Assembly: GCA_016182045.1 (NCBI GenBank)
Contig: JACOYE010000007.1
Span: 34,121-98,120 of the forward strand
Origin: Candidatus Microgenomates bacterium
Lineage (GTDB): Bacteria > Patescibacteriota > Microgenomatia > Daviesbacterales > UBA10151
Direction: 5' to 3'
Length of the DNA: 64,000 bases
Positions within the stretch are counted from its first letter, which is position 1; every line of letters begins with the position of its first letter. Under the pieces are notes generated by a model that worked only from the letters and a program-made list of their open reading frames with translations, had not been told where the DNA came from and did not search any database. This document shows, piece after piece, positions 13,095 through 61,365 of the stretch. A program made the position numbers and the translations under genes.

Positions 13095-13099
13095 AACTG

Positions 13100-14506: not shown

Positions 14507-14549
14507 TCTTACTGTTATACACTAAACACAGAAAGCAGCACAATACCTG

Positions 14550-15134
14550 TTAAAAGTGCAGTTTCTTCCCCAGTTTGAATTTAATAAGTAAAACAAATAT
14601 AGAACAAATAGAAAATATATATATAGGAAATGCAATATTAGCAAAATTATAATCTTTGAGCGTAAGAATAGTTATTATTGCAGCTATTCCAGCAAATAAA
14701 AAAGCCTGATAATTTTCAGTCTCAGGAAATTTATAAGATTTTATTAAAGTAGGAACTGCTGCTAATCCGTCAGCCAAAATGGCAAATAAAATTGCTATAT
14801 TCCCTATTTGTGTAATAGCCCAAAGCATAAGAGCCAGTAAAGATAATACCCCACAACCCAAATCAAAGTTTGTTATTTTCCACTCGGACTTTTTGTTTAA
14901 AAAGGAAGCACCAAAAATAACCAAAGGACTAAGACCAACTGTCAGAGTCATCAGAGAAGAAAGACCTACCCCCTGGGTAATTTGAGCAGCAAAAGCAATG
15001 ATTGGTGCCAATCCCCACAAAAACCAGGTAACTTTATTTGGTTTCGTCTTACCTTTTAACGTATCTATCAAATAACTTAAACTACCAAATAAATTCAGTG
15101 CAACTGCTAAAAATACAAACTTTTCATCTATCAT
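14550..15134 (-). CDS. hypothetical membrane protein
   Basis: 194 aa, multiple TM helices. Confidence 0.4.
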   Translation of the reverse strand: MIDEKFVFLAVALNLFGSLSYLIDTLKGKTKPNKVTWFLWGLAPIIAFAAQITQGVGLSSLMTLTVGLSPLVIFGASFLNKKSEWKITNFDLGCGVLSLLALMLWAITQIGNIAILFAILADGLAAVPTLIKSYKFPETENYQAFLFAGIAAIITILTLKDYNFANIAFPIYIFSICSIFVLLIKFKLGKKLHF

Positions 15135-15137
15135 AAT

Positions 15138-15950
15138 TTAGATTACCTTAACAAGTTTTCCACTATTTAGGATACTTTTTAGGATAAAGGCAAAAAAGAG
15201 GACCGAAGCGGTAAAGTAGAAAATATTTAAAATAAAGGCTAGCCAGAAAGATTGAATATCAAATTGCCCCCCTTTTATGATCTGTCTCATCCCTTCAAAT
15301 ACATGAGAAATTGGAATAAAGTAGGCAATCTTTTGAAAAACTTCCGGTAAAATATTGATGGGATAAAATACCGCTGCAAAAGGCTGCAGTAAAAAAGGCA
15401 TGATCCAGGTTAGCGGCCCGATTGAATGGCCGTATCTTAATACCAGTGAGATATTAAAAATGCCAAAAGAGGTGGCGAAAATAAACAAATTCAGAGCAAA
15501 AAGGGACAGTCCCAAGCCTAAAGAAGTAATCTGAAAGTTATAAAAAATTGCAGCCATAATCCACATAGACAAAAAAGTAATGGTAATTTTTATTAAACTG
15601 ACTAAAATAAGTCCGCTGATATATTCCAAGAAGGTAATGGGAGTGGATAAAACATTAATTAGATTTCTGTCCCAAATATCAAACATAAAATTGACCCCGA
15701 TATCAGTTGAGACTTTCTCAAAAATCACCCAAAGCATGATCCCACCCAGTAAAAAAGCTGCCAAAGTTGGGGTATTAAGTCCTTGAATATATGATGATAA
15801 AAATCCCCAAAGCACTATCATTAAAACCGGTGAGATTAACACATCAAAAAACCGCTCCAGCTGGTGAATGGCTGTGAAATAATGTCTTATTACTATGGCA
15901 AAAACCCGGTTAAAATTCATCTTGATGTCTTGATAAGTGTATAAACACAT
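15138..15950 (-). CDS. ABC-2 type transporter permease
   Basis: 270 aa, 6 TM; overlaps upstream ABC ATPase gene. Confidence 0.6.
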   Translation of the reverse strand: MCLYTYQDIKMNFNRVFAIVIRHYFTAIHQLERFFDVLISPVLMIVLWGFLSSYIQGLNTPTLAAFLLGGIMLWVIFEKVSTDIGVNFMFDIWDRNLINVLSTPITFLEYISGLILVSLIKITITFLSMWIMAAIFYNFQITSLGLGLSLFALNLFIFATSFGIFNISLVLRYGHSIGPLTWIMPFLLQPFAAVFYPINILPEVFQKIAYFIPISHVFEGMRQIIKGGQFDIQSFWLAFILNIFYFTASVLFFAFILKSILNSGKLVKVI

Positions 15951-16665
15951 CTCTTAAATTAGGTTCATCTGCTCCCCCCTTTAACACTTTCTGTGTTAGC
16001 TCCAAAGGTGAACCCTGGGCAATAATCTTTCCATGATTTAAAAAAATCACATTTGAGGCAACCTCCTCTATTTCCCACATATTGTGGGAGGTATAAAGTA
16101 TGGTAATCTTTTCCTCCTTCTGAATTTGTTTTATCATGGTAATCCCTTTATCCACAATATCCGGATCCATGGAAGCCATGGGTTCATCAAGTAGCAGTAG
16201 TTTTGGATTATTAAGGAATGCTTTACACAAATTCCCCCTGGCTCTTTGACCAAAAGAAAGCTCCCTGATATGTTTATTCTTTAAGTGAGATATTTCAAAA
16301 ATCTCCAGTAGCTCATCAATTCTTTTGTTAATATTTTTTAACTCATAAATCTTTCCGAAAACTACTAAACACTCCCAAAGTTTTAAGTTCCAAGGCAGTG
16401 AGAATTCTGCTGAAGCATAACTTACCTGCTTTAAAATCTCACTTCTTGCCTTTTTAATATCTTTGCCGAAAATCTTAATTTGTCCAAAATCAGGATCAAT
16501 CAAACCTAATAAACAATAAATAGTGGTGGATTTTCCGGCTCCATTTGGGCCTAAAAATCCCAAAATCTGACTTTCTTCCAAAGAAAAAGAGATATCATCA
16601 ATTGCTACAAATCCGCCAAAGGACTTCCTTAAATTTTTAACCTCTAAAATAATATTTTTACTCAT
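15910..16665 (-). CDS. ABC transporter ATP-binding protein
   Basis: Walker A GPNGAGKST, LSFGQ signature, LLLDEP Walker B. Confidence 0.9.
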   Translation of the reverse strand: MSKNIILEVKNLRKSFGGFVAIDDISFSLEESQILGFLGPNGAGKSTTIYCLLGLIDPDFGQIKIFGKDIKKARSEILKQVSYASAEFSLPWNLKLWECLVVFGKIYELKNINKRIDELLEIFEISHLKNKHIRELSFGQRARGNLCKAFLNNPKLLLLDEPMASMDPDIVDKGITMIKQIQKEEKITILYTSHNMWEIEEVASNVIFLNHGKIIAQGSPLELTQKVLKGGADEPNLRDVFIHLSRHQDEF

Positions 16666-16677
16666 ATCTTCCTTCTG

Positions 16678-16757
16678 TGATCCCGACGAATGTCGGGATC
16701 CAATTAAAAACCTACCTCAAATGGTTAATTGGATTCCCGCCTATGCGGGAATGACGA
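16678..16757. repeat. palindromic element (same family as 13781 and 29044), intergenic copy
   Basis: gatcccgacgaatgtcgggatccaatt...aattggattcccgcctatgcgggaatgac. Confidence 0.8.
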
Positions 16758-16810
16758 TGTTATTTATTGTAGATCAATTGAAGCTGAATTCCAATCAGGA
16801 GAGTTCATAT

Positions 16811-17770
16811 TTACTGTCTTTTCATTGTCTTTACACTAAATTTACCAAACTTTACTTCTGAACCTTTTCCTTTAAATCTATAATCATTAATTCCAATTCT
16901 AAACTTTTGAGCTTGGTTGAAGCTGTCCTCTAAATTAATAGCTAACGGTTTAAATAAAATATCTTTATATTCTACCCATCTATAATTTACTTCTCCTTCA
17001 GGCAAATAATTCATTTTAAATACCAAATATATAAACCCTGCTTTATAAGTCGCTTCTAGCGTTACAGTTATCTGTTTATCAAGAGTTACGTTCGCATCAC
17101 CCAACTTTCTTCTAGTAACTTCTGCCCACTTCTCCTTTCTTCCTGAATCATTTTTTTCTACCTTCCATGTTAATCTATCACCATCACCTATTAGAATTCT
17201 AAAAACTTCCTCAAATTCTAAAAAAATTCCAATTGATTGATTCTTCCTAGGAATTGCTGAAAAGGTAGCAATCCAAGGTAATGAACAGTCAAATTGATAT
17301 CTTTTTGCTGCCTGAAAAGTATCTGATTCAGGAGCAGCTACAACCGAAAGGTCATGCGGATCTGGATAAACGAACTTCTCTTTCCCTTCAACATCATTAA
17401 ACTCCAGTATTATCTCAACTGGAATACCTTCACATGGACGAGCTACAATACCTTTCACTCTTTCTTCATCAAGGGGAGTTTGTGAAGCCATAGAACTTGG
17501 AGAAATTTCGGGCTCATTTATAGGCAAAGGCGTTTGATTGCTTATTCCCATGCTTACCAAACTCTTTACACTATTTACCCCATCAATGAGATCTCCTGCT
17601 TTAATAAAAAAGATGATTAAACAGGCTATAAGTATTATTAGGAAAACAAAAATGAATGCTACTTTCCTTCCAGTCTTTCTTTCAATCCATGTAGAAATTG
17701 TCCTAGGAAAATTACCAATAAAATCCCATGACTTTGACCACACATCATCATGTTGTTGTTTAATGCTCAT
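16811..17770 (-). CDS. hypothetical membrane-anchored protein
   Basis: 319 aa, one N-terminal TM then soluble domain. Confidence 0.4.
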   Translation of the reverse strand: MSIKQQHDDVWSKSWDFIGNFPRTISTWIERKTGRKVAFIFVFLIILIACLIIFFIKAGDLIDGVNSVKSLVSMGISNQTPLPINEPEISPSSMASQTPLDEERVKGIVARPCEGIPVEIILEFNDVEGKEKFVYPDPHDLSVVAAPESDTFQAAKRYQFDCSLPWIATFSAIPRKNQSIGIFLEFEEVFRILIGDGDRLTWKVEKNDSGRKEKWAEVTRRKLGDANVTLDKQITVTLEATYKAGFIYLVFKMNYLPEGEVNYRWVEYKDILFKPLAINLEDSFNQAQKFRIGINDYRFKGKGSEVKFGKFSVKTMKRQ

Positions 17771-17772
17771 AC

Positions 17773-17800
17773 AAAAAAAGCAAGCCGTACGGCTTGCTTT
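17773..17800 (-). terminator. Rho-independent terminator downstream of DUF3467 gene
   Basis: perfect palindrome AGCAAGCCGTACGGCTTGCT followed on minus strand by T7. Confidence 0.7.
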
Positions 17801-17904
17801 TACAAGACCGCTGCCCTTATACCCTGCACAGAGGCAGGATCGGTCATATTTCCATATTAGGCACCTTTAATAGAGAAAAGCAAGTTAACAGGCGAAAAGC
17901 TTCT

Positions 17905-18189
17905 TTAACTTACAATTTTCTTTTTAGATGGACTAAATGTAACTTGCTTTTGGTTAAGCTCATCTTTCTCAAGCAACTCTTTAAGAGCAGCAATAAGCAC
18001 CTTAGCATGTTCCTTACTCATACCTAGGCGCGAAACAACAGTCTGCTGATTAGTAGTACCTACCCTTTGGGCAAAGTCCAAAACTACACCATATTGATTA
18101 ATTGTAAGAAAAGTTGAATCGGAATATAGTATTGTTACATTATTGGGTAAATTGACTTGAATTCCCTGACCGCTTCTATCACTTTCCAT
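17905..18189 (-). CDS. DUF3467 domain protein
   Basis: IQVNLPNNV...FLTINQYGVVLDF...EHAKVLIAALKELL matches DUF3467 pattern. Confidence 0.55.
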   Translation of the reverse strand: MESDRSGQGIQVNLPNNVTILYSDSTFLTINQYGVVLDFAQRVGTTNQQTVVSRLGMSKEHAKVLIAALKELLEKDELNQKQVTFSPSKKKIVS

Positions 18190-18446
18190 TGAATGTCACC
18201 ACCTCCTTTCCTATTTACACTGGATGAACTTTCACTTTTATTTCTTATTTGAATCAATTCTTGAAATTCTCTGTCATTCATATCCAAAACGCCTTGTATT
18301 TTTTGTAAGATAACGAGCGTGGGGATCCTGCTCCCCTTTTCAAATTTGCTTACGAGAGAATAAGATATCCCTGCTTCTTTACCTACTTGTCTCACGGTCA
18401 TACCCAATGATTCTCTTTTATGTTTTAAAAGACTTCCTAAACTCAT
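18135..18446 (-). CDS. XRE-family helix-turn-helix transcriptional regulator
   Basis: LGMTVRQVGKEAGISYSLVSKFEKG HTH; start moved to internal Met of ORF 18135..18515. Confidence 0.7.
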   Translation of the reverse strand: MSLGSLLKHKRESLGMTVRQVGKEAGISYSLVSKFEKGSRIPTLVILQKIQGVLDMNDREFQELIQIRNKSESSSSVNRKGGGDIQWKVIEAVREFKSIYPIM

Positions 18447-18528
18447 CTCAATAACTTTGTACCATATTTGTGTACATACTGTCAACAGGGAATAAAATAC
18501 CCCTTTCACGATCATTATTTGCTAATTA

Positions 18529-19521
18529 TCAGGAGAGTTTGCCTGAGCGGGCCAAAGATGCAGCTTTGCATCTTTTATAAAACTCTTCTTGAGCAGCTTT
18601 AATATTTTCTGCTTTCCCTGCCCAAATCTTCATGGGAGCATTTTGTAATCCTCTGGAATAGGAAAAAGTCAATGGCCAGGGGCCGCCTATTTTGTTAATC
18701 TCTAAAAGATTAGCAACAGCAGATTCATCGGATTGTCCACCTGATAAAAATGCAATTCCACCAACCTCTGGCGGAACAGATTGCTTTAAAGCATCCACGC
18801 TCATTTGTGCAACCTTTTTAGAATCAGCCTGAGTAGGACAATCTTTTCCGGACAAAACCATGCTGGGTTTTAAAACCATCCCTTCTAAAGCTACCTTATG
18901 AGCTTTTATCCTTTCAAAAACCATTTTTAAAGTTCTAACTTGAGCTTCAAAACACTGCTCTATGGTGTGATCCCCATCCAATAAAACTTCCGGTTCCACC
19001 ACCGGCACTATATCCTGTTCCTGACATAAAGCTGCATAGCGGGCCAAAACCTCGCTGTTTGCCTCAATGCAGGTATCTGTGGGAATCCCTTCTCCTATTT
19101 GAATAGTGGCCCTGAATTTGGCAAATTTGGCCCCCATCCCTTTATACTCTGTCAATCTGTCTCTTAGTCCATCCAGACCTTCTGCCACCTTTTCATTGGG
19201 AAAGTTTGCTAAATCATGCACCCCCTTATCCACTTTTATCCCCGGGATAATTCCTTTGCTTTCCAAGTATTGGCAGACAGATTTTCCATCAATAGATTGT
19301 CTGATTGTCTCATCAAATAAAATTATTCCCGATAAAAATTCTTCAACTCCAGGGGTAGTAAAAAGCATCTGTCTGTAGGCAAGTATTGACTCCGCTGTAC
19401 ATTCAATCCCTAAAGCATCAAATCTTTTTGTAATGGTTTTAGTTGACTCATCTGCAGCCAAAAGCCCTTTGGGGGGGACCATCATTGCTTGAGCTGTCTG
19501 TTTAAGTGTAGTTATATCCAT
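18529..19521 (-). CDS. fructose-bisphosphate aldolase, class I
   Basis: LLAADES motif and Schiff-base region LEGMVLKPSMV. Confidence 0.85.
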   Translation of the reverse strand: MDITTLKQTAQAMMVPPKGLLAADESTKTITKRFDALGIECTAESILAYRQMLFTTPGVEEFLSGIILFDETIRQSIDGKSVCQYLESKGIIPGIKVDKGVHDLANFPNEKVAEGLDGLRDRLTEYKGMGAKFAKFRATIQIGEGIPTDTCIEANSEVLARYAALCQEQDIVPVVEPEVLLDGDHTIEQCFEAQVRTLKMVFERIKAHKVALEGMVLKPSMVLSGKDCPTQADSKKVAQMSVDALKQSVPPEVGGIAFLSGGQSDESAVANLLEINKIGGPWPLTFSYSRGLQNAPMKIWAGKAENIKAAQEEFYKRCKAASLARSGKLS

Positions 19522-20513
19522 CAGTGATGAACCCGTTTCTCTATCTTCACACCATCATTATCAACTGTCAAGGTTGTTACTTCACTTCCCCCTTCACCCT
19601 TTACCCTTACACCATCCAAATCAAACCACTTATCATCTCCTGTGATAGAAGAGACAGACACCAAACAATTCTCCAATTTACCAGTCACCAAATCATCAAC
19701 ACTCCATATTTTGGTATACCTTTTTTGAATTTGAGCATCTCCTGACCAACCCCTTGCTTCACAAAACCCTCCTATTGCTTTTGCTGCCACCGCTGCTAAA
19801 ATCCCTTCCTCAAATCCCCCACTGCCTATAATAAGATATACACCCTTTTTGTGGGTTGTAGGATCCATGAAAGATAAAATAGATGGCAAAAAATCTCCGG
19901 CTTTAATTAAAATTAAATTCACTCCAAATTTCTCACAAGCATTAATGTAGTGTGCATTTCTATCCCTGTCCATTACTACTACATTAATCTGGTGAGATTG
20001 AATCTTAAATGTGTCCACAACTTCAGCCAAATTTTCCTCAGGAGTTTTACTCATAGACAACTTTCCTTTAAGTTGGGGCGGGCCAAATAATTTATCCATA
20101 TAATCTGTATCATCAGGTGTTCTCATCAAACCTTTATGGGAAGAAACAGCTACAACAGATACAGCTCCGGGAGTGTTTAACTTAGCAGCTTTTGATCCTT
20201 CCACTACATCATTAACCATGTCCAGTTTTTTACTTCCTGATCCAAATGTACCCATCAAGGTAGGTAAAGCTTCACCATATTGGTGAACATGTTTTCTGCC
20301 CTCAGAACCCACTATTTCCAGGGTGAATGGGATATCAGTCAGAGAGGCTGCCATAGCATCTACACCAGCCTGATCTATTAATTTTTCTCTTTTAATAGAT
20401 TCTTCTTCAGTTAAAAGATCATCTGCAGTAAATCCTTGCTGCTGAATTAATCTCCAAACAGATAAAGCAGTCAACTCTGTGGCGCGGGTAATATGGTGTT
20501 TAACAGAATCCAT
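19521..20513 (-). CDS. glpX: fructose-1,6-bisphosphatase class II
   Basis: C-terminal LIKAGD...IIGSGGFEEGILAAVAAKAIGGFCEAR matches GlpX family. Confidence 0.75.
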   Translation of the reverse strand: MDSVKHHITRATELTALSVWRLIQQQGFTADDLLTEEESIKREKLIDQAGVDAMAASLTDIPFTLEIVGSEGRKHVHQYGEALPTLMGTFGSGSKKLDMVNDVVEGSKAAKLNTPGAVSVVAVSSHKGLMRTPDDTDYMDKLFGPPQLKGKLSMSKTPEENLAEVVDTFKIQSHQINVVVMDRDRNAHYINACEKFGVNLILIKAGDFLPSILSFMDPTTHKKGVYLIIGSGGFEEGILAAVAAKAIGGFCEARGWSGDAQIQKRYTKIWSVDDLVTGKLENCLVSVSSITGDDKWFDLDGVRVKGEGGSEVTTLTVDNDGVKIEKRVHH

Positions 20514-27559: not shown

Positions 27560-27936
27560 ATCAATTTTAAACCTTTTATTCCTTTAAAATCTTTTTTATT
27601 TAAGGTAAAAATAGAGGCTTTATTTAAAATAGCTGTGGCAGCAATAGCTGCATCTGGAAATCCTAATGATCGACCTAAATCTCTGATTATCTTTCCTGCC
27701 AATTGAGCTATCTCATAAGTATAAGGTAAAATCTCCATTCCGCTAATAAGCTCTAAGAATAATTGTTCTTTGGTAAGTTCTCTGCTACTTTTTCCTGAGT
27801 ATAATTCTTGAATTGTGAGTATTGAAATTGCTAATGTCTTCTGAGGATATAATTTGATAAATTCTGCCAATGGTGAGTTAGTCTGTTCTGGTCTTCTTAA
27901 GAAGTCAATTAATATACTCGTATCTAAAATTACCAT
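27556..27936 (-). CDS. vapC: PIN-domain toxin VapC
   Basis: MVILDTSILIDF N-terminus. Confidence 0.8.
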   Translation of the reverse strand: MVILDTSILIDFLRRPEQTNSPLAEFIKLYPQKTLAISILTIQELYSGKSSRELTKEQLFLELISGMEILPYTYEIAQLAGKIIRDLGRSLGFPDAAIAATAILNKASIFTLNKKDFKGIKGLKLI

Positions 27937-31862: not shown

Positions 31863-32288
31863 TTACATTGTAACATGAAATAAATCAGATAAAAGTTTCA
31901 CAAATGGCAAATTGATTCTTTCCACCAATCTGGCATCTGCGGTAATTAAACTACACTGTTTCTCTTGTGCCAAAACTACATATGAGGCATCGTAAACTGA
32001 AATATGATAATTGCTTGCAAACTCAATCGCCTTTTCTGCTCTGGTAAAAGTAACATTCTCTAATTGGATGGCAGCTTTCTCTAGTTTCTTTAGATTTGCC
32101 TTGATATTTTTTAAAGTAATTTTAGTCTTTGTTACCCAGGCATTGGTCAACTCATAAATTAATAACTGGGGAGCTGAAATTAAAGACTTGTTCAGTCTAT
32201 GATCTTGAAGTATTTGCAAGGCCTCCTCAAAATTTGATTCATCTTCTGCAAACCATTTAAAAACTACAGAGGCGTCAATGACTACCAT
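31863..32288 (-). CDS. vapC: PIN-domain toxin VapC
   Basis: MVVIDASVVFKWF N-terminus. Confidence 0.8.
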   Translation of the reverse strand: MVVIDASVVFKWFAEDESNFEEALQILQDHRLNKSLISAPQLLIYELTNAWVTKTKITLKNIKANLKKLEKAAIQLENVTFTRAEKAIEFASNYHISVYDASYVVLAQEKQCSLITADARLVERINLPFVKLLSDLFHVTM

Positions 32289-32551
32289 TTGGCATTATCC
32301 CTCATATTTCTAATGATCTTCACTCCGTCAACGCCTTTTAAATATTTGGCATTTTCTCTGGCTAACTTTCTTATATCCTGCATGAATTTTTCTACATCGG
32401 CTTTAGAATGACCATTTTTTTTGGTACCAACTTTTTCCCTGATTACAGCAGACAGGCTTTTACGTCTTTTAGCAGCCTCTTCTTTAAGACGAAAGTAGTC
32501 TTCTTCAGATAATCTGATGTTGGTGGTAATGTAATTACTCATATAATACAA
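32282..32551 (-). CDS. ribbon-helix-helix antitoxin
   Basis: NIRLSEEDYFRLKEEAAKRRKSLSAVIRE. Confidence 0.6.
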   Translation of the reverse strand: MYYMSNYITTNIRLSEEDYFRLKEEAAKRRKSLSAVIREKVGTKKNGHSKADVEKFMQDIRKLARENAKYLKGVDGVKIIRNMRDNAKW

Positions 32552-51964: not shown

Positions 51965-52037
51965 GTACCAGGGGTGGGGATCGAACCCACAACCGCCACG
52001 TTATGAATGTGGTGCTCCGCCATTGAGCTACCCTGGC
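51965..52037 (-). tRNA. tRNA with CAT anticodon (elongator Met or lysidine-type Ile)
   Basis: cloverleaf readable: acceptor GCCAGGG, D arm GCTC/GAGC, anticodon loop TTCATAA, T arm GTGGG-TTCGATC-CCCAC. Confidence 0.75.
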
Positions 52038-52069
52038 TTGAGATAAAAATTGTACCAAAAAGGAGTTAA

Positions 52070-53437
52070 TTAAACAAAAAAGAAGTAGATTGTGGTAACT
52101 GCTGCCAGCCCCATAATCAGTGCAATCATCCATCCTAAAATAGTGGTGATTGGACCATTTGTCTTATCCCCCATCACTTTTTTGCTGCCACTAAGTAAAA
52201 TAATCAAAACCAAAATTACAGGTGCAATTAAACCATTAAATAAAGCTGTATAAATAAGTACTTTAATGGTATCTAAGTTTAAAAAATTGATAGATAAACC
52301 AATCAAAGTGGAAATAATAATCACCCCATAAAAGGCGTTTGCCTCCTTAAGTTTTCTGTAAAGTCCATATTTCCAGCCAAAACTTTCTGAGATTGCATAA
52401 GAGGCAGAACCTGCTAAAACCGGTATTGCCAAAAGTCCTGTTCCAATAATGCCTGCCGTAAATAAAAGATATGTAAACTCACCGGCTATTGGCCTTAGGG
52501 CCTCTGCAGCATCAGCTGCTGTTTGTATATTTGTTACTCCATTGGCATATAAAGTGGCAGCTGAGGCTGCGATAATAAAAAACATCACCAAATTGGAAAG
52601 AAACATACCTGACCAAACATCCATTCTCATATCTTTGATATCCTTATCTGTAGTACCTTTTCTTAAAGCTATAGTGGTTTTCCCTTGCATAATTTCCTCT
52701 TCAATCTCTTGTGAAGTTTGCCAGAAGAAAAGGTAGGGAGAGATGGTGGTGCCTAAAACTGCTGTTACTAAAAATATCCACTCTTTAGACACATCAAATA
52801 CAGGAGTAATCGTATGGGTAAGAAGTTTCTCAAAATCTAAATTGGTACTTAGAGCAGAGAAAACATATGCCAAAAGAATCAAAGCCAGCCATTTTAAGTA
52901 CTTAGCATATCTGTCATAGGTGGTGAATATCTGCAAAGCCAAGGAGAAAATGGCAAAGCCTAAAATTAATGTATCAAAGCTAAGGTGGGGCGAAATAAGC
53001 TGAGTGGCTTTAGCCATAGCTCCTAAATCTGCACCAATATTTAAAGAATTGGCAGCAAAAAGTAAGCCTGCGCAAATATAAAGTACCCATTTGGGATAAT
53101 AGGCTCTAATGTTTGCAGCCAAGCCCTTACCTGTCACCAACCCTATTCTTGCACACATCTCTTGCACTACTGCCATCAAGGGAAAGGTAAATGGTGCCAG
53201 CCAAAGAAATTGAAAACCATATTGGGCACCTGCTTGAGAGTAAGTGGCAATGCCTGAGGGGTCATCATCGGCAGCACCTGTTGTTAAACCAGGGCCTAAA
53301 GTATGCCAATATTCCCTGGCTCTTTTCATATCTTTATGATTCGTAACGTCTTTTACAAGTTGTTTCGAGGTATCTAACGTCCTGCCTAAAGCCACAGCTG
53401 GAGCCTCAGCAACTTGCTTTAAGAATTTTTCATCCAT
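52070..53437 (-). CDS. mntH: Nramp-family divalent metal (Mn2+/Fe2+) transporter
   Basis: GPG..DDDPSGIATYSQAGAQYGF...LW consensus. Confidence 0.85.
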   Translation of the reverse strand: MDEKFLKQVAEAPAVALGRTLDTSKQLVKDVTNHKDMKRAREYWHTLGPGLTTGAADDDPSGIATYSQAGAQYGFQFLWLAPFTFPLMAVVQEMCARIGLVTGKGLAANIRAYYPKWVLYICAGLLFAANSLNIGADLGAMAKATQLISPHLSFDTLILGFAIFSLALQIFTTYDRYAKYLKWLALILLAYVFSALSTNLDFEKLLTHTITPVFDVSKEWIFLVTAVLGTTISPYLFFWQTSQEIEEEIMQGKTTIALRKGTTDKDIKDMRMDVWSGMFLSNLVMFFIIAASAATLYANGVTNIQTAADAAEALRPIAGEFTYLLFTAGIIGTGLLAIPVLAGSASYAISESFGWKYGLYRKLKEANAFYGVIIISTLIGLSINFLNLDTIKVLIYTALFNGLIAPVILVLIILLSGSKKVMGDKTNGPITTILGWMIALIMGLAAVTTIYFFFV

Positions 53438-53478
53438 AACTTAAGGGTAGAATAAACAAACAGATGCGTCAACCCCGA

Positions 53479-53733
53479 TTAAATCGGGGTTAATTTTAAT
53501 CCTAAAATTCTGATTTTTTGTTCTCTGCTCCAGCCTTTTATTTGTCTTTCTCTTTTTAAAGCTTCTGATTGATTTGGTAATTTCTCAGAATAAATCATCT
53601 TAAGAGGTTGATGGGATCTGGTGTAATGCCCGCCTTTGCCATTTTTATGATCAGAAAATCTTTTTTCTAAATTATTAGAAACCCCAGTATAAAGACTGCC
53701 ATCTTTACATAAAAGTACATAAACAAACCACAT
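53479..53733 (-). CDS. GIY-YIG nuclease family protein
   Basis: FVYVLLCKDGSLYTGVSNNLEKRFSDH pattern. Confidence 0.8.
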   Translation of the reverse strand: MWFVYVLLCKDGSLYTGVSNNLEKRFSDHKNGKGGHYTRSHQPLKMIYSEKLPNQSEALKRERQIKGWSREQKIRILGLKLTPI

Positions 53734-53760
53734 AATGTATATTTTATGCTACAATATGCA

Positions 53761-53832
53761 CGCGGGGAAGTGTAACGGCTGCACACAAGGCTCATAATCT
53801 TGAGGCAGTGGGTTCGACTCCCGCCCCCGCAA
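53761..53832 (+). tRNA. initiator-type tRNA-Met (CAT)
   Basis: 5' CGCGGGG and 3' CCCCCGCAA acceptor identical to E. coli tRNA-fMet (C1xA72 mismatch), anticodon loop CTCATAA. Confidence 0.8.
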
Positions 53833-53882
53833 CACTTCGACTCCACTTCGGTAAACTCAGTGTCGCTCAGTGCAGGCACAAA

Positions 53883-54242
53883 TTATCTAAAAAACAACCT
53901 CCACCAGCCTAGCCAATTGGGAAGCCTAATTTGGGCAGATTCAGAAGTGCCCAGAACCTCTTTTAGCTTTTCTTCAGGAATAATCACCACTGTCTCGCCT
54001 GCTTTGGCCAAACCCAGCTTATTTCTGGCTTGCTCTTCAATAAACTCCTCTGATTGTATCTGGGAAAGTTTCTCCTTTAGCTGCCTGTTTTGAGCCTGAA
54101 GCTGAGCTAAATTGTCTGCCTCTTGAGAAAGCCTCTCGGAAGATTTGAGGGCATCTGAGATTTGATTGATCAGATTATAGCCAATTAAAAACATTATCAA
54201 AATGGCAATTCCCAAACTGATCCTTTTAATCATACTTGACAA
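53883..54242 (-). CDS. ftsB: septum formation initiator FtsB/DivIC-like protein
   Basis: N-terminal TM followed by coiled coil. Confidence 0.6.
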   Translation of the reverse strand: MSSMIKRISLGIAILIMFLIGYNLINQISDALKSSERLSQEADNLAQLQAQNRQLKEKLSQIQSEEFIEEQARNKLGLAKAGETVVIIPEEKLKEVLGTSESAQIRLPNWLGWWRLFFR

Positions 54243-55135
54243 AATTATCCTATAAACTTAAAATATGTGCCATGGCATCTCTAAAAGACGCTCATCAGCA
54301 ATTTATAGATCATCTTAAGAGTAAATCCCGTGCTTCAGCTACTATTTTAGCTTATGGTAAAGATACAGAGCAACTGGTGCAATATCTTAATACTTTAGGC
54401 AAAACTGAGACAGCTGATGTGAAGTTGGAGGATCTCCAGGCCTTTATGGCCAATTTGGCCAAAGAAAATTATACCCCCAAATCAATTTCCAGAAAAACCA
54501 ATTCCACCAAAACTTTCTTTAAATTCTTAAAATCAACTGGAGCAATTTCTGATGATCCTGCATCTGCTCTTGAACATCCCAAATTTGAGAATAAACCACC
54601 CAGGATTTTGACTAAGCTGGAATACAGGGCCTTAAGAGATGCAGCCAGATTAGATATCAGAATTTATGCCATCATCGAACTTCTGCTGCAAACAGGCATT
54701 AGAATTGGTGAACTGGCTAAAGTTAGGGTGGAGGATGTCGATGTTGGAAATTTAACACTTCATGTTCCCCCTTTTGAAGGAGCCAATGAAAGAATTATCC
54801 CTTTAAATAAACCAGCTGCAGAGGCTGTGGAAAATTATCTTAAAATCAGGCCTAAAACCCCTTCTCATGCCCTGTTTGTAACCAAAACAGGCAGGCCCCT
54901 GCTTATTAGAAATATTAGAACAGCCATAGATAGATATTTTAGAATTGCGGGTATTAAAGGGGCCAAGGTCAATGATTTACGCCACACCTGGGTGGCTCAC
55001 CAGCTCCAATCAGGAGTACCATTAACCATGATTTCCAAGTTAGCAGGTCACAAGAGACTTTCCACCACAGAAAGATATCTGCAATTTATTACTGGCCAAA
55101 ATGCCGAAGGAAAAGTTAAGCTGGAAGAGCTCTAA
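54236..55135 (+). CDS. tyrosine site-specific recombinase (XerC/XerD or integrase)
   Basis: C-terminal R...HxxR...Y catalytic region LRHTWVAHQL...GHKRLSTTERYL. Confidence 0.85.
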   Translation: MTKLSYKLKICAMASLKDAHQQFIDHLKSKSRASATILAYGKDTEQLVQYLNTLGKTETADVKLEDLQAFMANLAKENYTPKSISRKTNSTKTFFKFLKSTGAISDDPASALEHPKFENKPPRILTKLEYRALRDAARLDIRIYAIIELLLQTGIRIGELAKVRVEDVDVGNLTLHVPPFEGANERIIPLNKPAAEAVENYLKIRPKTPSHALFVTKTGRPLLIRNIRTAIDRYFRIAGIKGAKVNDLRHTWVAHQLQSGVPLTMISKLAGHKRLSTTERYLQFITGQNAEGKVKLEEL

Positions 55136-55158
55136 ATGTGGGCGGACCAGGATTCGGG

Positions 55159-55183
55159 TAGGCCCGGAAGGAATCGAACCTCC
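55159..55183 (-). other. orphan tRNA 3'-end-like fragment (T arm + acceptor 3' strand), possible att remnant
   Basis: GGAGGTTCGATTCCTTC-CGGGCCT-A on minus strand; no matching 5' half found. Confidence 0.3.
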
Positions 55184-55275
55184 ATCAGGTTTGTATAATT
55201 AAAGCTTTCCTTTTGACTTCGTCAAAACGTAAGACACCCGCTATACTAGTGGGCATGCTTGGATGAGTATTTAAT

Positions 55276-55554
55276 TCATTTCCTTTTGTAAACTTTTCTA
55301 TGACCACCTATGCCTAAAAACCTAACTGTGGTTTTACCCAACCACTCATATACAATCCTTATATCATCGGTTATTGAAAAAGCCCACTTACCTTTCATTC
55401 TGCCAGTTAAAGGATGATTATCCAAACGGGTATCTTGAGAATTTTTCCGAAACCAGCGGATTCTTTTATCAATTTCTGCTTTTAATGCCGAATCTTCATA
55501 ATGTATCTCATCCAGCAGCTGATTGAATTTGCCAGTCCGTTCGATCTTTACCAT
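55276..55554 (-). CDS. relE: RelE/StbE-family toxin
   Basis: 92 aa, DIRIVYEW...GHRKVY C-terminus. Confidence 0.7.
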   Translation of the reverse strand: MVKIERTGKFNQLLDEIHYEDSALKAEIDKRIRWFRKNSQDTRLDNHPLTGRMKGKWAFSITDDIRIVYEWLGKTTVRFLGIGGHRKVYKRK

Positions 55555-55846
55555 GTTCCTTTTGTTTTCTCTTCTCTATTCTTTTATGAAGTTTTTTGAA
55601 ATACTTGTCAATATCTTCTTCGGTTTTCCATACGGGAGATTTTTTTATAGGTTCATCCGCTGCTTCTAAAACCTGGTCTTCAAACCATCCTGGAAAACCA
55701 TTCTCTGTAATTTTATCTGCATCATAAAAAACCCTACGCAAACCGGCTCTCATTACTTCACTGATAGAGCTATATTTTCCTTCAGCTACTAGTTTTTTTG
55801 CGGTTTTGTACAATTGTTCTGGTAAAGAAATATTAACTGTTGTCAT
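55508..55846 (-). CDS. ribbon-helix-helix (ParD-like) antitoxin
   Basis: NISLPEQLYKTAKKLVAEGKYSSISEVMRAGLRRV. Confidence 0.6.
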   Translation of the reverse strand: MTTVNISLPEQLYKTAKKLVAEGKYSSISEVMRAGLRRVFYDADKITENGFPGWFEDQVLEAADEPIKKSPVWKTEEDIDKYFKKLHKRIEKRKQKEHGKDRTDWQIQSAAG

Positions 55847-55899
55847 ATAACAAAAATTGTATGATATTCATACATAAATGTCAATTAGCAAAATGCCGG

Positions 55900-55972
55900 T
55901 GGGCGGACCAGGACTTGAACCTGGAACCAATTCTGTATAAGAGAACCGCTCTACCAATTGAGCTATCCGCCC
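55900..55972 (-). tRNA. tRNA-Ile with TAT (UAU) anticodon
   Basis: acceptor GGGCGGA/TCCGCCC, D arm GCTC-AATTGGTA-GAGC, anticodon loop CTTATAC, T arm CCAGG-TTCAAGT-CCTGG. Confidence 0.65.
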
Positions 55973-55987
55973 GTGGAGAGAATTATA

Positions 55988-58330
55988 CTACAGCCTGGCC
56001 CTCTGGACAATCTCAGCTTCCACCTGAGCCGCATCACGGCCAAACTTCAGCCTGGACAGCTCCCTGATCGCCTGACCGATTTGAGGATTGAGCATGGTTC
56101 TCCATTTCTTCATATCTTTGGTGGTATCCAAAGAAAACGGTACCACCGGTTCACCATTAACAATGGTTTTGATGTAGGCGTGAGGAGACTCAATATTGAC
56201 CAGATCATTTTCAGTGAAAGTGGGAGAAAATTCATGCTGCAGGTAATTGGCATCAGTTACCCCAACCCTAAAAGCTATCACTGTACCCACGTTGCCAAAA
56301 ACCGCATTTTTCAAATCCTCCCCAATTTGTCCAATAAACTGATTGGCCACAATCAAGTTTAGTCTGTATTTTCTGGCCTCGGACAAAATATCGGCAAAGG
56401 TGTCGGTGGCAAAATTTTGGAACTCATCCACATAAAGGTAAAAATCTTTCCTCGCCTCCATGGGCATATCAGCCCGGGACATGGCAGCAGCCAAAATCTT
56501 GGGTACTAAAATAAGCCCCAAAAAGTTGGAGTTTTCCTCCCCTATCCTTCCTTTGGACACATTCATGATTAAGATTTTACCCTCATCCATCACCTGTCTG
56601 AGATTAAATGAAGATTGAGTCTGACCAATGATATTTCTCATCATCTTATTGGTGACAAAGCGGCCGAATTTGGACACTGTATAATCCAACACCTCTGATT
56701 TGTGAAAGTCAGAGGTCTGGGCAATCTGATCTGTCCAATAACGTCTCACCACCGGGTCTGTTACCGACGGCAACAGTTCTCTGACAAAGGCGGGGTCCTG
56801 CAGAACCCTCATCACCTCCACAAAGGTGGAACCGGGTTTACTCATCACAGTTAACATGGCATTTCTCACTCCATGCTCAAATCTGGGTCCGATAATACCG
56901 GTTTTATTGGGATCAAACAGCTTATACATCAGACCTATGATTGAGGAGACCACAAAATGTTTCTGTTCCTCGGTATAGGCCTCAAGCATGTTTAAACCAA
57001 AAGGCCTGGTCACATCTGAAGGATCAAAATAGATCACCTCTTCTGCCCTTTCAGGAGGAATCAGCTGAAGCATCTCCTCAGCCGCATCACCGTGAGGATC
57101 AATAAAACATAAACCCTTGCCAGACATAATATCTTGGATCATTAAAGATTTTAAGAACTCAGTTTTACCAGTGCCGGTTCTGCCAATCACATACATGTGT
57201 CTTCTTCTGTCATCCTCCGATAAATAAACAGGCCGGGTAATGCCTCTAAAAACAGACCTGCCTAAATAAAGTCCGGAAACCGGGATCTTCTCAGGAGCAG
57301 GAGCTCTTTTGGCGCTCATCCAGGAAATATAGGGGGTTTCCACTGATTTGGACGGGAAATGATAAATGGAGGCCAACTCATCCGGTGTTAAAACAGAAAC
57401 TTTGGTATACATGGGCAGATAACGGTAAATGAAATCAGTCATAAAACCTTTTTCTGAGTAGACCTTGGCCCCGGATAATCCATTATATGGACCTGAGAAT
57501 TGTTCAAAAGCAGCTTTGATATTAGTTAGATGAGCCTTAGCCCCTTCCGGGGAAGTTGACGAGGTGACAATTCTTATGGCTGTATAAAAACCCGGCTTGG
57601 ATATTTTTCCTTCCGCTGCCTCCAGTTGTTTGGCATCGGGTGGAGGTTTTGGTTCCTCGGCTTTGCCAGGATCCTTTTCTTTTTTTAGCCATTTTTTGCC
57701 CAAATCTTTCCATTTATCATCTGAGGGAGAAATAACAAGCTGTACTGCCGCTCCCTCCCCCGGTTGCATCTTGGCCAGGGCGGAAGTAAGAGCGGAGAGT
57801 GGATCTGTGGGTAAATCCTTAAAAGTTTTAAAGAGGAAGTAATCTGCATTCTTAAGCTTTAAGGCAGAATAGGCAGTGTGTCCCTTTTCGGAAAAGATAT
57901 TATATTCAGACACTTCCTTAATCTCCGCATCCGAATAGGCCCCATGAATTTGTTTTTCCACCAGATCCTGGTGAGTCTTATGGCAAGATATATAAAAGTT
58001 AATTGATTCATGCAAAGCCACAATTTCAAAAGACAGCTTTGATTGTGATTGAAAAGCTGACAACATCCCGCCGGATTTTCTTAAAGAGGCAAAGGTGGAA
58101 AAAAGCTGCTCTGTGGCATCAATTTTAACCTCATTTCCCCTGGCAACCTTTATTTGTAAAAGGACAAACTGTAACGATTCTTTCTCTCTGTCTTTATACT
58201 TAATCCAACCCACAAAAAATTTTCTAAAATAAAAAATTATACCCACCAAAACCATCAGCGCCGATAAAGCGCCGATGACCAAAATTACTAAACCAACAAA
58301 ATCTATTCCCCCAGTTTGCGTGACTTCCAT
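55988..58330 (-). CDS. membrane-anchored TraD/VirD4-like coupling ATPase (FtsK/HerA superfamily)
   Basis: N-terminal TM; Walker A VIGRTGTGKT, Walker B YLYVDEFQNF. Confidence 0.6.
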   Translation of the reverse strand: MEVTQTGGIDFVGLVILVIGALSALMVLVGIIFYFRKFFVGWIKYKDREKESLQFVLLQIKVARGNEVKIDATEQLFSTFASLRKSGGMLSAFQSQSKLSFEIVALHESINFYISCHKTHQDLVEKQIHGAYSDAEIKEVSEYNIFSEKGHTAYSALKLKNADYFLFKTFKDLPTDPLSALTSALAKMQPGEGAAVQLVISPSDDKWKDLGKKWLKKEKDPGKAEEPKPPPDAKQLEAAEGKISKPGFYTAIRIVTSSTSPEGAKAHLTNIKAAFEQFSGPYNGLSGAKVYSEKGFMTDFIYRYLPMYTKVSVLTPDELASIYHFPSKSVETPYISWMSAKRAPAPEKIPVSGLYLGRSVFRGITRPVYLSEDDRRRHMYVIGRTGTGKTEFLKSLMIQDIMSGKGLCFIDPHGDAAEEMLQLIPPERAEEVIYFDPSDVTRPFGLNMLEAYTEEQKHFVVSSIIGLMYKLFDPNKTGIIGPRFEHGVRNAMLTVMSKPGSTFVEVMRVLQDPAFVRELLPSVTDPVVRRYWTDQIAQTSDFHKSEVLDYTVSKFGRFVTNKMMRNIIGQTQSSFNLRQVMDEGKILIMNVSKGRIGEENSNFLGLILVPKILAAAMSRADMPMEARKDFYLYVDEFQNFATDTFADILSEARKYRLNLIVANQFIGQIGEDLKNAVFGNVGTVIAFRVGVTDANYLQHEFSPTFTENDLVNIESPHAYIKTIVNGEPVVPFSLDTTKDMKKWRTMLNPQIGQAIRELSRLKFGRDAAQVEAEIVQRARL

Positions 58331-58334
58331 AATT

Positions 58335-58715
58335 TTAGGCTGCTTTTTTCAACTTTAATCTGTTCACAGCTCTACCTATTACTAACCTCAATGGATTTGA
58401 GCTTTTACCTTGACCCGCTCTATGCATTGCTTCAGTGCTACCACCCAATTCCTCTCCAATTGATCTGATTACATCCCCCACTGAAATTTCCGAACCGGCC
58501 GGCTTAAGTCCCAGGCTTTCCATTTCAGGAGTGATTGTTAAAACTTTACCGCCTTTAACCGCCTCTGTACTAGTAGGATGACCAGCTTCAGTTAAATGAT
58601 GAGCTACATTTTGAGCAGCCTGATCATGAATTTCCTCCTCAGAGGTTGGCTCAGTAATTCCTGATTCTTTAATAGCAGATCCTCTAACCTGCTCTTTTTC
58701 TTGGGCAGCATCCAT
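58335..58715 (-). CDS. hypothetical protein
   Basis: 126 aa, 4-bp spacing from upstream ATPase gene. Confidence 0.35.
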   Translation of the reverse strand: MDAAQEKEQVRGSAIKESGITEPTSEEEIHDQAAQNVAHHLTEAGHPTSTEAVKGGKVLTITPEMESLGLKPAGSEISVGDVIRSIGEELGGSTEAMHRAGQGKSSNPLRLVIGRAVNRLKLKKAA

Positions 58716-59917: not shown

Positions 59918-60313
59918 TTATACTGCTTCTATTGGATAAAATTTAATATCTGACATTGGATAATCCTTTTTATTTCTTGTTACTAACTGGCATTTTTCTA
60001 AAATAGCAGTTGACGCAATTAAAGTATCTACTACAGGAAGTAAAATTCCTTTTGTTTTTTTATATTCCTGTCTATATTGGCCAGCTAATTCTACGGTTTT
60101 CTTGTTTAAATTCAATACTTTTACAAGGTCGTACAACTGAGGCAAAAGCTGTTCTGCCTGCTCGCTTGTCCAGCCGGACCTTAACTCTGTTACAGAAAGA
60201 GTTGAGATTACAAGGGTGCCTTGAATCAAAAGTTTATCCAAACAATCAACCGCATACTCCTTTTTCTTAAAAAAATCCATCAAAATATCGCTATCAAGAA
60301 GATATTTTGTCAT
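59918..60313 (-). CDS. vapC: PIN-domain toxin VapC
   Basis: YLLDSDILMDFF N-terminus. Confidence 0.8.
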   Translation of the reverse strand: MTKYLLDSDILMDFFKKKEYAVDCLDKLLIQGTLVISTLSVTELRSGWTSEQAEQLLPQLYDLVKVLNLNKKTVELAGQYRQEYKKTKGILLPVVDTLIASTAILEKCQLVTRNKKDYPMSDIKFYPIEAV

Positions 60314-60567
60314 ATTCCCAGCCGCTTAAATCTTTTTTCATCAAGCCGCCTGCTCTTTCTAACCCAAGCCACAGAATCTTTAATATCAGAAAATGCCGGA
60401 GGACCTGCTAAAATTTCTTCAAAAGCTTTTCTGGCACGAATAGATCTGGCTTTTTCTTCTGCAGCTTCAGCCAAAAACCTACTTACACCTCTTTTAGGAG
60501 CTAGCTTTTTAATCATTCTGTAAGTTTCTTCGGGAAGCGAGATATTAACTCTAGTAATCATACACAA
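60310..60567 (-). CDS. ribbon-helix-helix antitoxin
   Basis: ITRVNISLPEETYRMIKKLA. Confidence 0.6.
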   Translation of the reverse strand: MCMITRVNISLPEETYRMIKKLAPKRGVSRFLAEAAEEKARSIRARKAFEEILAGPPAFSDIKDSVAWVRKSRRLDEKRFKRLGI

Positions 60568-60655
60568 TTATTATACACAATATAGGTGTGTAATACAAGT
60601 CTCAAGACTTCAAGTTTTCTAAATACTCTTCTGCATCAAAGGCTGCTTTGGAGTT

Positions 60656-61081
60656 TCAATAATCTTTAAGATCTTTTATCCATTTACTTTGTGCTTTTTT
60701 GATTAATTTCTCATCTGCTGTATACAAGGGAACCTCAAGATATTCAGCCAAAACGATATAACTGGCATCATATGAAGAAATATCCAACTCAAGAGCCTTC
60801 TCTAAAGTGGTTTTTAATAAATCTTTTGATGAATAAACTTTAAAATCTAAATTTAAGAATCCTTCATATGCCTCTATAGACTTCTTGGGATTAATTCTCC
60901 GCCCTTTGGTAGCAGATTTTAGTAAATTATTAATTTCGTAAAAGATAAAGACGGGAACTGCTACTCCTAAAGTTTTGCTTATAAATTCTTCTTTTATTCT
61001 GCTTGCAGCTGGATGATCTTTTTCATCAGGAAGTAACCATTTAGCAACAACCGATGCATCAATAACAATAGATTTAATCAC
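60656..61081 (-). CDS. vapC: PIN-domain toxin VapC
   Basis: SIVIDASVVAKWLL N-terminus. Confidence 0.8.
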   Translation of the reverse strand: MIKSIVIDASVVAKWLLPDEKDHPAASRIKEEFISKTLGVAVPVFIFYEINNLLKSATKGRRINPKKSIEAYEGFLNLDFKVYSSKDLLKTTLEKALELDISSYDASYIVLAEYLEVPLYTADEKLIKKAQSKWIKDLKDY

Positions 61082-61365
61082 TTAAAATTCTTTAATAACT
61101 TATTGGTACGCTCTTCAAGCTCCCTTTTATTTTCTTCCACCAATCTTTTGGTATTAATCTTTGCACCATGTAAGCTTTTCCTGAAATTATCTATTTTAGC
61201 CATGGCTTCCCGTTGTATATCCAGGTCTGAGATATGACCAAATCCCAATGACAAAGCTTCATTGATCACATCCTGCAAAGATACACCCCGTTGAAAAGCC
61301 AATAATCTGGATTGATCAAATAAATCTTTCCTAATTCTTACAGTAGTTCTAATTGTTGTTTGCAT
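61078..61365 (-). CDS. antitoxin (RHH/VapB-like)
   Basis: TTVRIRKDLFDQSRLLAFQRGVSLQDVINEAL. Confidence 0.55.
   Translation of the reverse strand: MQTTIRTTVRIRKDLFDQSRLLAFQRGVSLQDVINEALSLGFGHISDLDIQREAMAKIDNFRKSLHGAKINTKRLVEENKRELEERTNKLLKNFK

Follow-up and report, generated by a model that had tools for sequence, protein, structure and literature searches.

Integrative mobile elements exploiting Xer recombination (IMEX) integrate at dif, and the systems that rely on a single Xer recombinase include XerS/difSL, XerH/difH, and archaeal XerA. Elements that are still flanked by attachment (att) sites after the loss of their integration and transfer genes are referred to as cis-mobilizable elements (CIMEs) (PMC6323972), and the dif modules of Acinetobacter plasmids include a toxin-antitoxin (TA) module of 768 bp (PMC6449649). 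A 2025 survey of Patescibacteria, the candidate phyla radiation (CPR), counted 5,713 homologues of VirD4-like type IV coupling proteins (T4CPs) in 2,918 genomes, with only 148 near virB4; relaxases are described as almost absent, and the authors allow that the proteins may have been exapted to another function (PMC12102498). In this study, we examine a locus that can be compared with these systems. It lies in a stretch of 64,000 nt (contig JACOYE010000007.1, positions 34,121-98,120, forward strand), which will be called the window and whose numbering is used for all window coordinates. The locus contains a Xer-family tyrosine recombinase, a RelE/ribbon-helix-helix (RHH) gene pair, a T4CP-like ATPase, and three tRNAs, and it had been predicted from its sequence to be the remnant of a tRNA-targeted integrative element. 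Our analysis indicates instead that the recombinase and the ATPase belong to a conserved chromosomal block, and that the foreign DNA is confined to a small islet at the 3' flank of a tRNA-Ile(UAU) gene.

Relatives of the ATPase were confirmed by tblastn at 300 loci in GTDB representative genomes. The best 80 of these loci were fetched as pieces of 22 kb each (L001-L080), and the window proteins were mapped onto them as a test of synteny. Spacer statistics refer to the loci that yielded both an ATPase and a recombinase gene, 63 in total when the window is counted. A further 68 metagenomic contigs that carry members of the RelE/RHH cassette family are numbered L081-L148. ARAGORN and Rfam were used for the tRNAs, together with Pfam, NCBIfam, PHROG, PADLOC, PDB profile searches, Foldseek, and nhmmer. 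The window ATPase is 73-83% identical to many proteins from metagenome-assembled genomes of Candidatus Daviesbacteria and ~60% identical to proteins from Levy-, Beckwith-, and Curtissbacteria; the closest relative found anywhere by protein search and GTDB genome scan has an identity of 83%. These identities indicate that the window derives from a Microgenomates (CPR/Patescibacteria) genome that is Daviesbacteria-like.

The ATPase, tRNA-Ile(UAU), the convergent Xer-like recombinase, and DivIC are found in the same order in ~60 Microgenomates genomes at species level, those of Daviesbacteria among them. In nearly all Daviesbacteria the full order is TrxR, NiSOD, S26 peptidase, ATPase, a gap, the convergent recombinase, and DivIC, and the part from the ATPase to DivIC extends to more distant classes, including Levy- and Beckwithbacteria, in which the recombinase is 53-61% identical. 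The ATPase is syntenic and 60-83% identical across the 80 genomes (the best 80 of 300), the recombinase is syntenic and 53-80% identical in ~60 genomes, and the DivIC gene adjoins the recombinase in nearly all loci. The pairwise divergences of the ATPase and the recombinase are closely correlated (r = 0.91; 1,873 pairs). All but one of the 63 loci (62, with the window counted) have a tRNA-Ile(UAU) gene in the gap, and tRNA-Ile also follows the ATPase in ten further loci that have no adjacent recombinase. Near-empty spacers of 97-130 bp between the tRNA and the recombinase were found in L002 (97 bp), L037 (100 bp), L004, L036, L029, and L030. These loci keep the recombinase and the ATPase in unchanged order and orientation, and they are laid out as the ATPase stop, 15-20 nt that include a TATAAT box, the tRNA, 4-25 nt, and the recombinase stop. 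The synteny, the empty sites, and the co-divergence together indicate that the recombinase and the ATPase are core, vertically inherited chromosomal genes that lie outside the islet and are not the cargo of an element.

The islet itself is ~0.76 kb long (55138-55897) and contains no recombinase gene. In tRNA sense, that is, on the minus strand, the order is the live tRNA of type T2, the TA pair, a pseudogene of a type T1 tRNA (psi-T1), a CGAA spacer, a T2 relic, the dinucleotide AT, and the recombinase stop (Table 1). The live tRNA-Ile sits 15 nt downstream of the ATPase stop, and the TATAAT box 8 nt upstream of it is kept in relatives whatever the type of the tRNA. The original prediction had pointed to direct repeats of the tRNA 3' end as markers of att sites, and such a repeat is present: the T2 relic, which that prediction had overlooked, is an exact 15-bp copy of 55899-55913, with a chance expectation in the window of 0.02, and the repeat brackets the TA pair and the pseudogene. 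The recombinase stops at 55135 and the relic starts at 55138, so the recombinase lies outside the repeat-bounded segment. Of the proposed tRNA-targeted element there is a foreign-DNA relic beside a tRNA, marked by tRNA-derived repeats, but the recombinase and the ATPase are not part of it.

The pseudogene had been noticed earlier as an orphan tRNA 3' fragment at 55159-55183. The fragment is real, but it forms the 3' terminus of a longer tRNA-Ile(UAU) pseudogene of ~100 nt. This pseudogene can be aligned with the T1 tRNAs of L036, L022, and L034, beginning at position 2-9 and reaching position 73, and its 3' half is 90% identical to live T1 genes. The lesions comprise an insertion of ~34 nt in the anticodon loop (~55199-55232), a 7-nt deletion in the D arm, and two mismatches in the acceptor stem, and ARAGORN and Rfam at default settings miss the pseudogene, for which no cloverleaf fold was found. 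The possibility that it is a functional, intron-containing tRNA was rejected because ARAGORN needs a relaxed score and the intron option to report it and because of the D-arm deletion, the acceptor mismatches, and the lack of a cloverleaf. The insertion (55199-55232) holds a perfect 7-bp hairpin, TTTTGAC-GAA-GTCAAAA. The segment that runs from psi-T1 through CGAA and the T2 relic to the end of the recombinase gene is 90.5% identical to L036 over 95 bp, an identity which indicates that it was inherited from a state in which a T1 tRNA was followed by a T2 relic.

The RelE/RHH pair of the original prediction was recovered by Pfam and NCBIfam as a RelE/YafQ-like toxin with an RHH antitoxin. The antitoxin gene comes first, and the two genes overlap by 47 nt. 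The palindrome enclosed by the promoter of the pair is presumably the TA operator, and the same promoter and palindrome start the cassettes of L013, L014, L082, L084, L085, and L089.

Table 1. Features of the locus in window coordinates, in order of position.
Feature	Position	Strand	Status and evidence
tRNA-Met(CAT)	51965-52037	-	ARAGORN, Rfam
tRNA-Met(CAT)	53761-53833	+	ARAGORN, Rfam
DivIC/FtsB-like septum protein	53883-54242	-	Core gene, divergent from recombinase; Pfam DivIC 1e-15
Xer-family tyrosine recombinase	54236-55135	+	Core gene, convergent with tRNA-Ile; Pfam Phage_integrase 2e-31 and SAM-like N-domain
15-nt T2-type tRNA-Ile 3' relic (TCCTGGTCCGCCCAC, tRNA sense)	55138-55152	-	2 nt from recombinase stop
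tRNA-Ile(UAU) pseudogene, type T1 (AGGCCCG...CGGGCCTA)	55157-55256	-	nhmmer, 3' half E=4e-8
RelE/YafQ-family toxin	55276-55554	-	Islet cargo; TIGR02385 RelE_StbE 30.2 (cutoff 27.9); Pfam YafQ_toxin; PHROG RelE-like
RHH (CopG/ParD-like) antitoxin	55508-55846	-	Islet cargo; Pfam RHH_1 20.5 (equal to cutoff); NCBIfam ParD-family
TA cassette promoter, TTGACA-17-TACAAT	55856-55884	-	Score 11/12; encloses palindrome TGTATGA-ATA-TCATACA (7-3-7)
Functional tRNA-Ile(UAU), type T2 (GGGCGGA...TCCGCCCA)	55898-55972	-	ARAGORN; Rfam 72.4 bits; clean cloverleaf
Promoter-like site for tRNA-Ile, TTGTCC-17-TATAAT	55982-56010	-	Inside 3' end of ATPase gene
Membrane-anchored VirD4/TraD-like (T4CP-like) P-loop ATPase, 780 aa	55988-58330	-	Core gene; Pfam, PDB profiles, Foldseek

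The spacer around the tRNA is variable among the relatives: lengths of 97 bp to 2.3 kb were measured across the set, and L012 reaches 7.6 kb. Its cargo differs by species and includes RelE/RHH, PIN, GIY-YIG, 23S-IVS four-helix-bundle, NYN, nucleotidyltransferase, and sigma70-r4-like genes as well as several unknowns. Two main and clearly different types of tRNA-Ile are found among the loci, T1 in 29 and T2 in 13 (window included). The two are interspersed on a star-like species tree, throughout which the flanking proteins are ~20% diverged. Outside the live tRNA, 17 relics of tRNA 3' ends were found in 16 of the 63 loci, compared with 0.7 expected from shuffled sequences. All 17 follow the live tRNA on its 3' side and in the same orientation, and relics of the other type lie directly 3' of the live gene. 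The T2 15-mer is found 2-6 nt past the T1 tRNA in 12 T1 loci, from as many species, that have no T2 gene, including the near-empty L004, L036, and L030, and in L020 the roles are exchanged, with a T1 relic behind a T2 tRNA. Relics that are longer and start at tRNA positions 35-50 are present in L040, L007, L071, L051, and L064. The only motifs that recur in the spacers are extended -10 boxes (TGGTATAATT and TGGTACAATT).

Several further features of these spacers were observed. The tRNA-Ile(UAU) gene is inverted in seven of the measured loci (L009, L022, L026, L028, L031, L045, and L052) and also in L075, L135, and L138, which suggests local inversion or re-insertion; in L031, tRNA fragments flank the inverted gene on both sides. 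The acceptor and T arms of the T1 tRNAs are near identical, and the D arm and anticodon stem occur as variants (GTAGCTCAGTGGTAGAGC versus GTCGTATAATGGTAATAC), which gives these genes a mosaic look. Additionally, an open reading frame (ORF) of ~230 aa recurs upstream of tRNA-Ile in L011, L020, L046, L059, L060, L064, L071, and L076. It has an N-terminal helix-turn-helix and a motif that looks LAGLIDADG-like (FIAGVFLYWGEGSK), and Pfam finds only a weak HTH_23 match; a homing endonuclease is a candidate only.

The TA cassette is present at this site in 3-4 of the ~62 GTDB loci and in 4-5 metagenomic contigs, and the polymorphism is confined to the cassette and does not extend to the recombinase or the ATPase. 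Homologous cassettes, from the promoter to the RelE stop, directly follow tRNA-Ile in L013, L014, and L020 (RHH only), and the cassette is found at the same site in the metagenomic contigs L082, L084, L085, and L089. The order of cassette and relics is not constant: L084 has a T1 tRNA, the TA pair, a T1 relic, and a T2 relic; L082 has a T1 tRNA, a T2 relic, the TA pair, and a T1 relic; and the window has a T2 tRNA, the TA pair, psi-T1, and a T2 relic. Exact direct repeats of the tRNA T-arm/acceptor region bracket the cassettes of L082 (20 bp, 707 bp apart) and L084 (19 bp, 638 bp apart), and such repeats are the usual footprint of insertion into the 3' region of a tRNA. More distant relatives of the cassette lie less than 100 bp from a tRNA in at least 9 of the 68 contigs, compared with roughly 2% expected from a rough estimate of tRNA density and with few independent events among them; the adjacent tRNAs are Leu(CAA), Pro(GGG), and Gly(CCC) (for example in L107, L116, L127, L136, L141, L093, and L108). 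Independent elements also occupy the site. In L012, an element of 7.6 kb with a large serine recombinase (Resolvase, Recombinase, and Zn_ribbon_recom domains) lies between tRNA-Ile and the recombinase (12380-20170); at the far end of this element is a sigma70-r4-like ORF, and relatives of that ORF lie beside the recombinase in L015 and L032. In L079, which belongs to a distant lineage, a homologue of the serine recombinase is found directly downstream of tRNA-Ile (3937-5394).

The resident tyrosine recombinase, which had been described as XerC/integrase-like and is confirmed as a tyrosine recombinase by its Pfam matches, likely starts at the ATG at 54272. Its NCBIfam scores for XerC, XerD, and XerA are 164, 161, and 163 bits, and the respective equivalog cutoffs of 335, 330, and 220 are all missed. 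The nearest solved structures are those of E. coli XerD and archaeal XerA. The orthologues keep Arg-I, HxxR, His, and the Tyr nucleophile, and in the column of the beta-hairpin Lys (K172 of XerD) they have R (23), N (11, including the window), E (8), or V (6) and in no case K, in a region where the alignment is uncertain. There is no paralogue of the recombinase in the window. A reading of the tRNA-Ile region as the chromosomal dif, and of the block as a dimer-resolution module at the terminus, is not supported. No switch of GC skew or gene orientation occurs at the locus; both are unchanged for 50 kb to the left and at least 5 kb to the right. Nothing usable was found in the literature on the FtsK or divisome content of Patescibacteria.

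The ATPase was correctly recognized in the original prediction as resembling coupling proteins. It has a hydrophobic helix at residues 11-35 (from the sequence and from DSSP of the model), Walker A and B motifs, and weak Pfam matches that are above cutoff (TrwB_AAD_bind, 22.9 versus 20.5; TraG-D_C, 23.1 versus 22; and DUF87). The choice between VirD4/TraD/TraG and FtsK/HerA had been left to domain searches, and the TrwB and TraG domains and the lack of FtsK favor the former, but the cutoffs of the curated families are missed. In NCBIfam, the protein is far below cutoff for SXT_TraD, TrbC, CedB, and CD1115, and even the best match, SXT_TraD, reaches 54.9 bits where 366 are required. Among PDB profiles, DotL and TrwB match best. 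A low-confidence model, built from a shallow alignment (mean predicted local distance difference test score 54.5) and uninterpretable in the N-terminal domain of ~300 aa between the helix and the core, tentatively resembles TrwB, DotL, Cagbeta, and VirB4, and then HerA and DndH, in Foldseek. FtsK is absent from the top 50 Foldseek matches of this model, and the Pfam FtsK_SpoIIIE match covers the P-loop only and remains below cutoff (19.5 versus 24 bits); the alpha/beta motor and gamma domains of an FtsK/SpoIIIE translocase were not recovered. A scan of the genes flanking the locus and of the ten largest ORFs in 1-48.5 kb, with small ORFs covered incompletely, yielded no relaxase, VirB4, or other type IV secretion system partner, and no paralogue of the ATPase was found in the scanned parts of the window. 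PADLOC assigned no membership in a defense system, and the ATPase matched only mad8 and, weakly, HerA/DndH. Residues 236-778 match phrog_5156, a PHROG of unknown function, almost end to end (E=8e-91), and relatives of the ATPase are thus also present in (pro)viral sequence sets.

With slightly better than even confidence, we favor an account in which a vertically inherited gene block carries a decayed tRNA-flank islet that arose by repeated site-specific insertion at the 3' flank of tRNA-Ile. Foreign DNA would have been inserted there again and again by site-specific recombination, and the catalysts would have been recombinases that the cassette does not encode, either supplied in trans or lost as a larger element decayed. 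Each event would leave a working tRNA-Ile beside the ATPase, with the most recent insert adjoining the live tRNA, and the older copies would be pushed towards the recombinase gene and decay there; the 15-nt T2 relic would then be the trace of a tRNA copy still older than psi-T1. The TA pair may persist because its loss would be costly to the cell, so that the addictive part survives. A number of observations weigh against repeated site-specific insertion. Both acceptor strands of the live tRNA are of type T2, so the gene is not the chimera of host 5' and element 3' parts produced by classical integration into a tRNA 3' end; either it arrived whole or a tandem copy has decayed. On their 5' side the relics end at different tRNA positions (2, 35, 39-44, 50, 56, and 59) and give no single crossover point, and a k-mer search of the 63 spacers found no conserved motif for a cassette boundary or recombination site. 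In the ATPase and recombinase genes, no recombination tract or recent donor was detected, and the identity is at the background of 70-85%. The 15-bp repeat of the window need not be an att duplication made by insertion of the TA pair, since the same relic follows T1 tRNAs in the 12 species without a T2 gene. The cassettes of L013 and L014 have no detectable flanking relic, and in nucleotide identity to L014 the TA pair (75%) does not exceed the flanking genes, which leaves room for old vertical inheritance with many losses.

Such inheritance is the basis of one alternative, in which the TA pair is an old resident of the spacer that was lost in most lineages, the tRNA relics are unrelated local duplications, and nothing is mobile. 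The match between the divergence from L014 and that of the flanking genes, and the presence of the cassette at the same site in at least eight related genomes, would be explained in this way. We nevertheless consider it improbable, because the order of cassette and relics differs between L084, L082, and the window, because relatives of the cassette adjoin other tRNAs, and because the relics are not of the same type as the live gene, as copies made by local duplication would be. The main rival dispenses with site-specific integration and attributes the reshuffling of the spacer to homologous or homology-facilitated illegitimate recombination following uptake of DNA from other Daviesbacteria. 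One crossover would fall in the conserved end of the ATPase gene or the tRNA promoter and the other, illegitimate one in or near the resident tRNA, after which the redundant copies would decay. A left junction that is seamless whatever the type of the tRNA (TAG stop of the ATPase, TATAAT, tRNA), the replacement of whole rather than chimeric tRNAs, the variable relic boundaries with no boundary motif, and the scatter of tRNA types over the star-like tree are all consistent with such exchange. The lack of a recombination tract in the ATPase or recombinase genes is not, and the exact repeats of 19-20 bp in L082 and L084 are a typical product of recombinase or Campbell-type insertion at a site that recombinase-bearing elements also use, so we regard homologous exchange as unlikely, though it deserves serious attention.

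The remaining alternatives concern the role of the resident genes. If the conserved Xer-like recombinase were itself the catalyst, its gene and the abutting 3' end of tRNA-Ile would form a fixed capture platform for integrase-less cassettes, which might be likened to intI/attI, to IMEX at dif, and to the Acinetobacter dif modules. The recombinase stop is 4-8 nt from the tRNA 3' end in the minimal loci of several lineages, the cassettes have no recombinase yet are bracketed by tRNA-derived repeats, and the relics are always stacked between the tRNA and the recombinase gene. Additionally, dif modules with a TA pair, ~0.77 kb in length, have been described in other systems (PMC6449649). On the other hand, the beta-hairpin Lys is not conserved, insertions are found upstream of the tRNA too, larger elements bring their own serine recombinase, and ATPase and tRNA stay linked in loci that lack an adjacent recombinase; the cassette boundaries showed no Xer-site-like motif, and the adjacency may reflect nothing more than synteny in a compact genome. 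Catalysis by the resident recombinase is therefore distinctly unlikely in our judgement. Going further, the Microgenomates recombinase and the tRNA-Ile(UAU) 3' end might be a dedicated capture site that stacks cassettes and replacement tRNAs, perhaps with the ATPase as a DNA-handling partner; we treat this as a long shot, which if true would represent a tRNA-based analogue of the integron and dif-module platforms. Finally, the original proposal, that the recombinase, TA pair, ATPase, and three tRNAs are the remnant of one tRNA-targeted integrative or conjugative element, draws on gene types often met in integrative and conjugative elements, or ICEs (a tyrosine recombinase, a TA pair, and a coupling-protein-like ATPase), and on the tRNA 3' repeat. 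It had itself named full synteny in relatives, and a canonical XerC/XerD integrase with dif elsewhere, as observations that would speak against it, and the order of recombinase and ATPase proved to be kept in ~60 genomes. Both genes lie outside the repeats, are kept in relatives with an empty site, are syntenic across classes, and diverge together; the large window ORFs that were scanned include neither a VirB4 nor a relaxase; and in Patescibacteria, T4CP homologues are as a rule chromosomal orphans (PMC12102498). The synteny result refutes a single integrated element, and we give it almost no credence.

All three tRNAs of the original prediction were found by both ARAGORN and Rfam where it had placed them, and two of them, the tRNA-Met genes, play no part in the islet. 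The label of initiator given to the tRNA-Met at 53761-53833 is only half borne out: a C1xA72 mismatch is present, but in the Rfam alignment the anticodon stem does not have the three G:C pairs. A small gene for a GIY-YIG nuclease (53479-53733) adjoins this tRNA, and weaker tblastn matches to it (32-43% identity) lie in the spacer between the ATPase and tRNA-Ile in L007, L017, L019, L032, and L051; in these five Daviesbacteria the tRNA is always of type T1. Between the two tRNA-Met genes lies an Nramp gene whose orientation differs among the relatives. The window is rich in TA genes, with two adjacent PIN/RHH pairs between NiSOD and TrxR (59918-61365), which among the relatives occur at that place only in L014 and L021, and PIN paralogues at 27586-27930 and 31884-32294. 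Directly upstream of the ATPase, an ORF of 126 aa (58335-58715) has no family match and is not conserved, with a match only in L055 (36%), and the spacer between the S26 peptidase and the ATPase varies in length among the relatives.

The finding is ordinary in kind, as it consists of core genes and a small tRNA-flank islet with a TA pair and tRNA relics. The class-wide linkage of ATPase, tRNA-Ile(UAU), Xer-like recombinase, and DivIC and the repeated replacement of whole tRNA-Ile genes that leaves layered relics are modestly new. The linkage provides a neighborhood clue for a very abundant CPR family of unknown function, and the insertion hotspot at tRNA-Ile(UAU), which is found across many uncultivated species, could record gene flow among Daviesbacteria. 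A "phage integrase", a tRNA, a TA pair, and a "coupling protein" found together in a CPR genome need not represent a mobile element, since the recombinase and the ATPase are core genes here.

The window ATPase fits as a member of the known class of orphan chromosomal VirD4-like T4CPs of Patescibacteria. Like the proteins described in the survey (PMC12102498), it is a membrane-anchored, chromosomal P-loop ATPase with TrwB/TraG-type domains, far from virB4 and with no relaxase nearby, and the class is phylum-wide; the fixed neighborhood of tRNA-Ile(UAU), Xer-like recombinase, and DivIC found here was not met in the part of the survey consulted. The RelE/RHH pair resembles type II RelE/ParE-RHH systems in its antitoxin-first overlapping genes, its family matches, and its promoter with a palindrome, and it is known here from sequence. 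The recombinase resembles those of single-recombinase Xer systems in that it is a conserved Xer-family gene with near-equal scores for XerC, XerD, and XerA, but it falls below every equivalog cutoff and the hairpin Lys is not conserved. Xer-dependent modules, such as those at dif, are likewise integrase-less, are similar to the cassette in size and content, and also lie next to a host Xer-type recombinase; they differ in that no dif-like boundary sites were found at this locus, the repeats are derived from a tRNA, and the locus is not at a GC-skew switch. Compared with tRNA-linked islets and CIMEs, the cassette is only ~0.65 kb long and has no known parent ICE or conjugation module, and the live tRNA is a whole gene of another type and not a chimera of host and element. 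With these it shares a small, recombinase-less cargo at a tRNA 3' end, tRNA-derived repeats, and relics stacked as in tandem accretion, and of the known systems, a tRNA-linked islet in a decayed state or a CIME comes closest to the islet described here.

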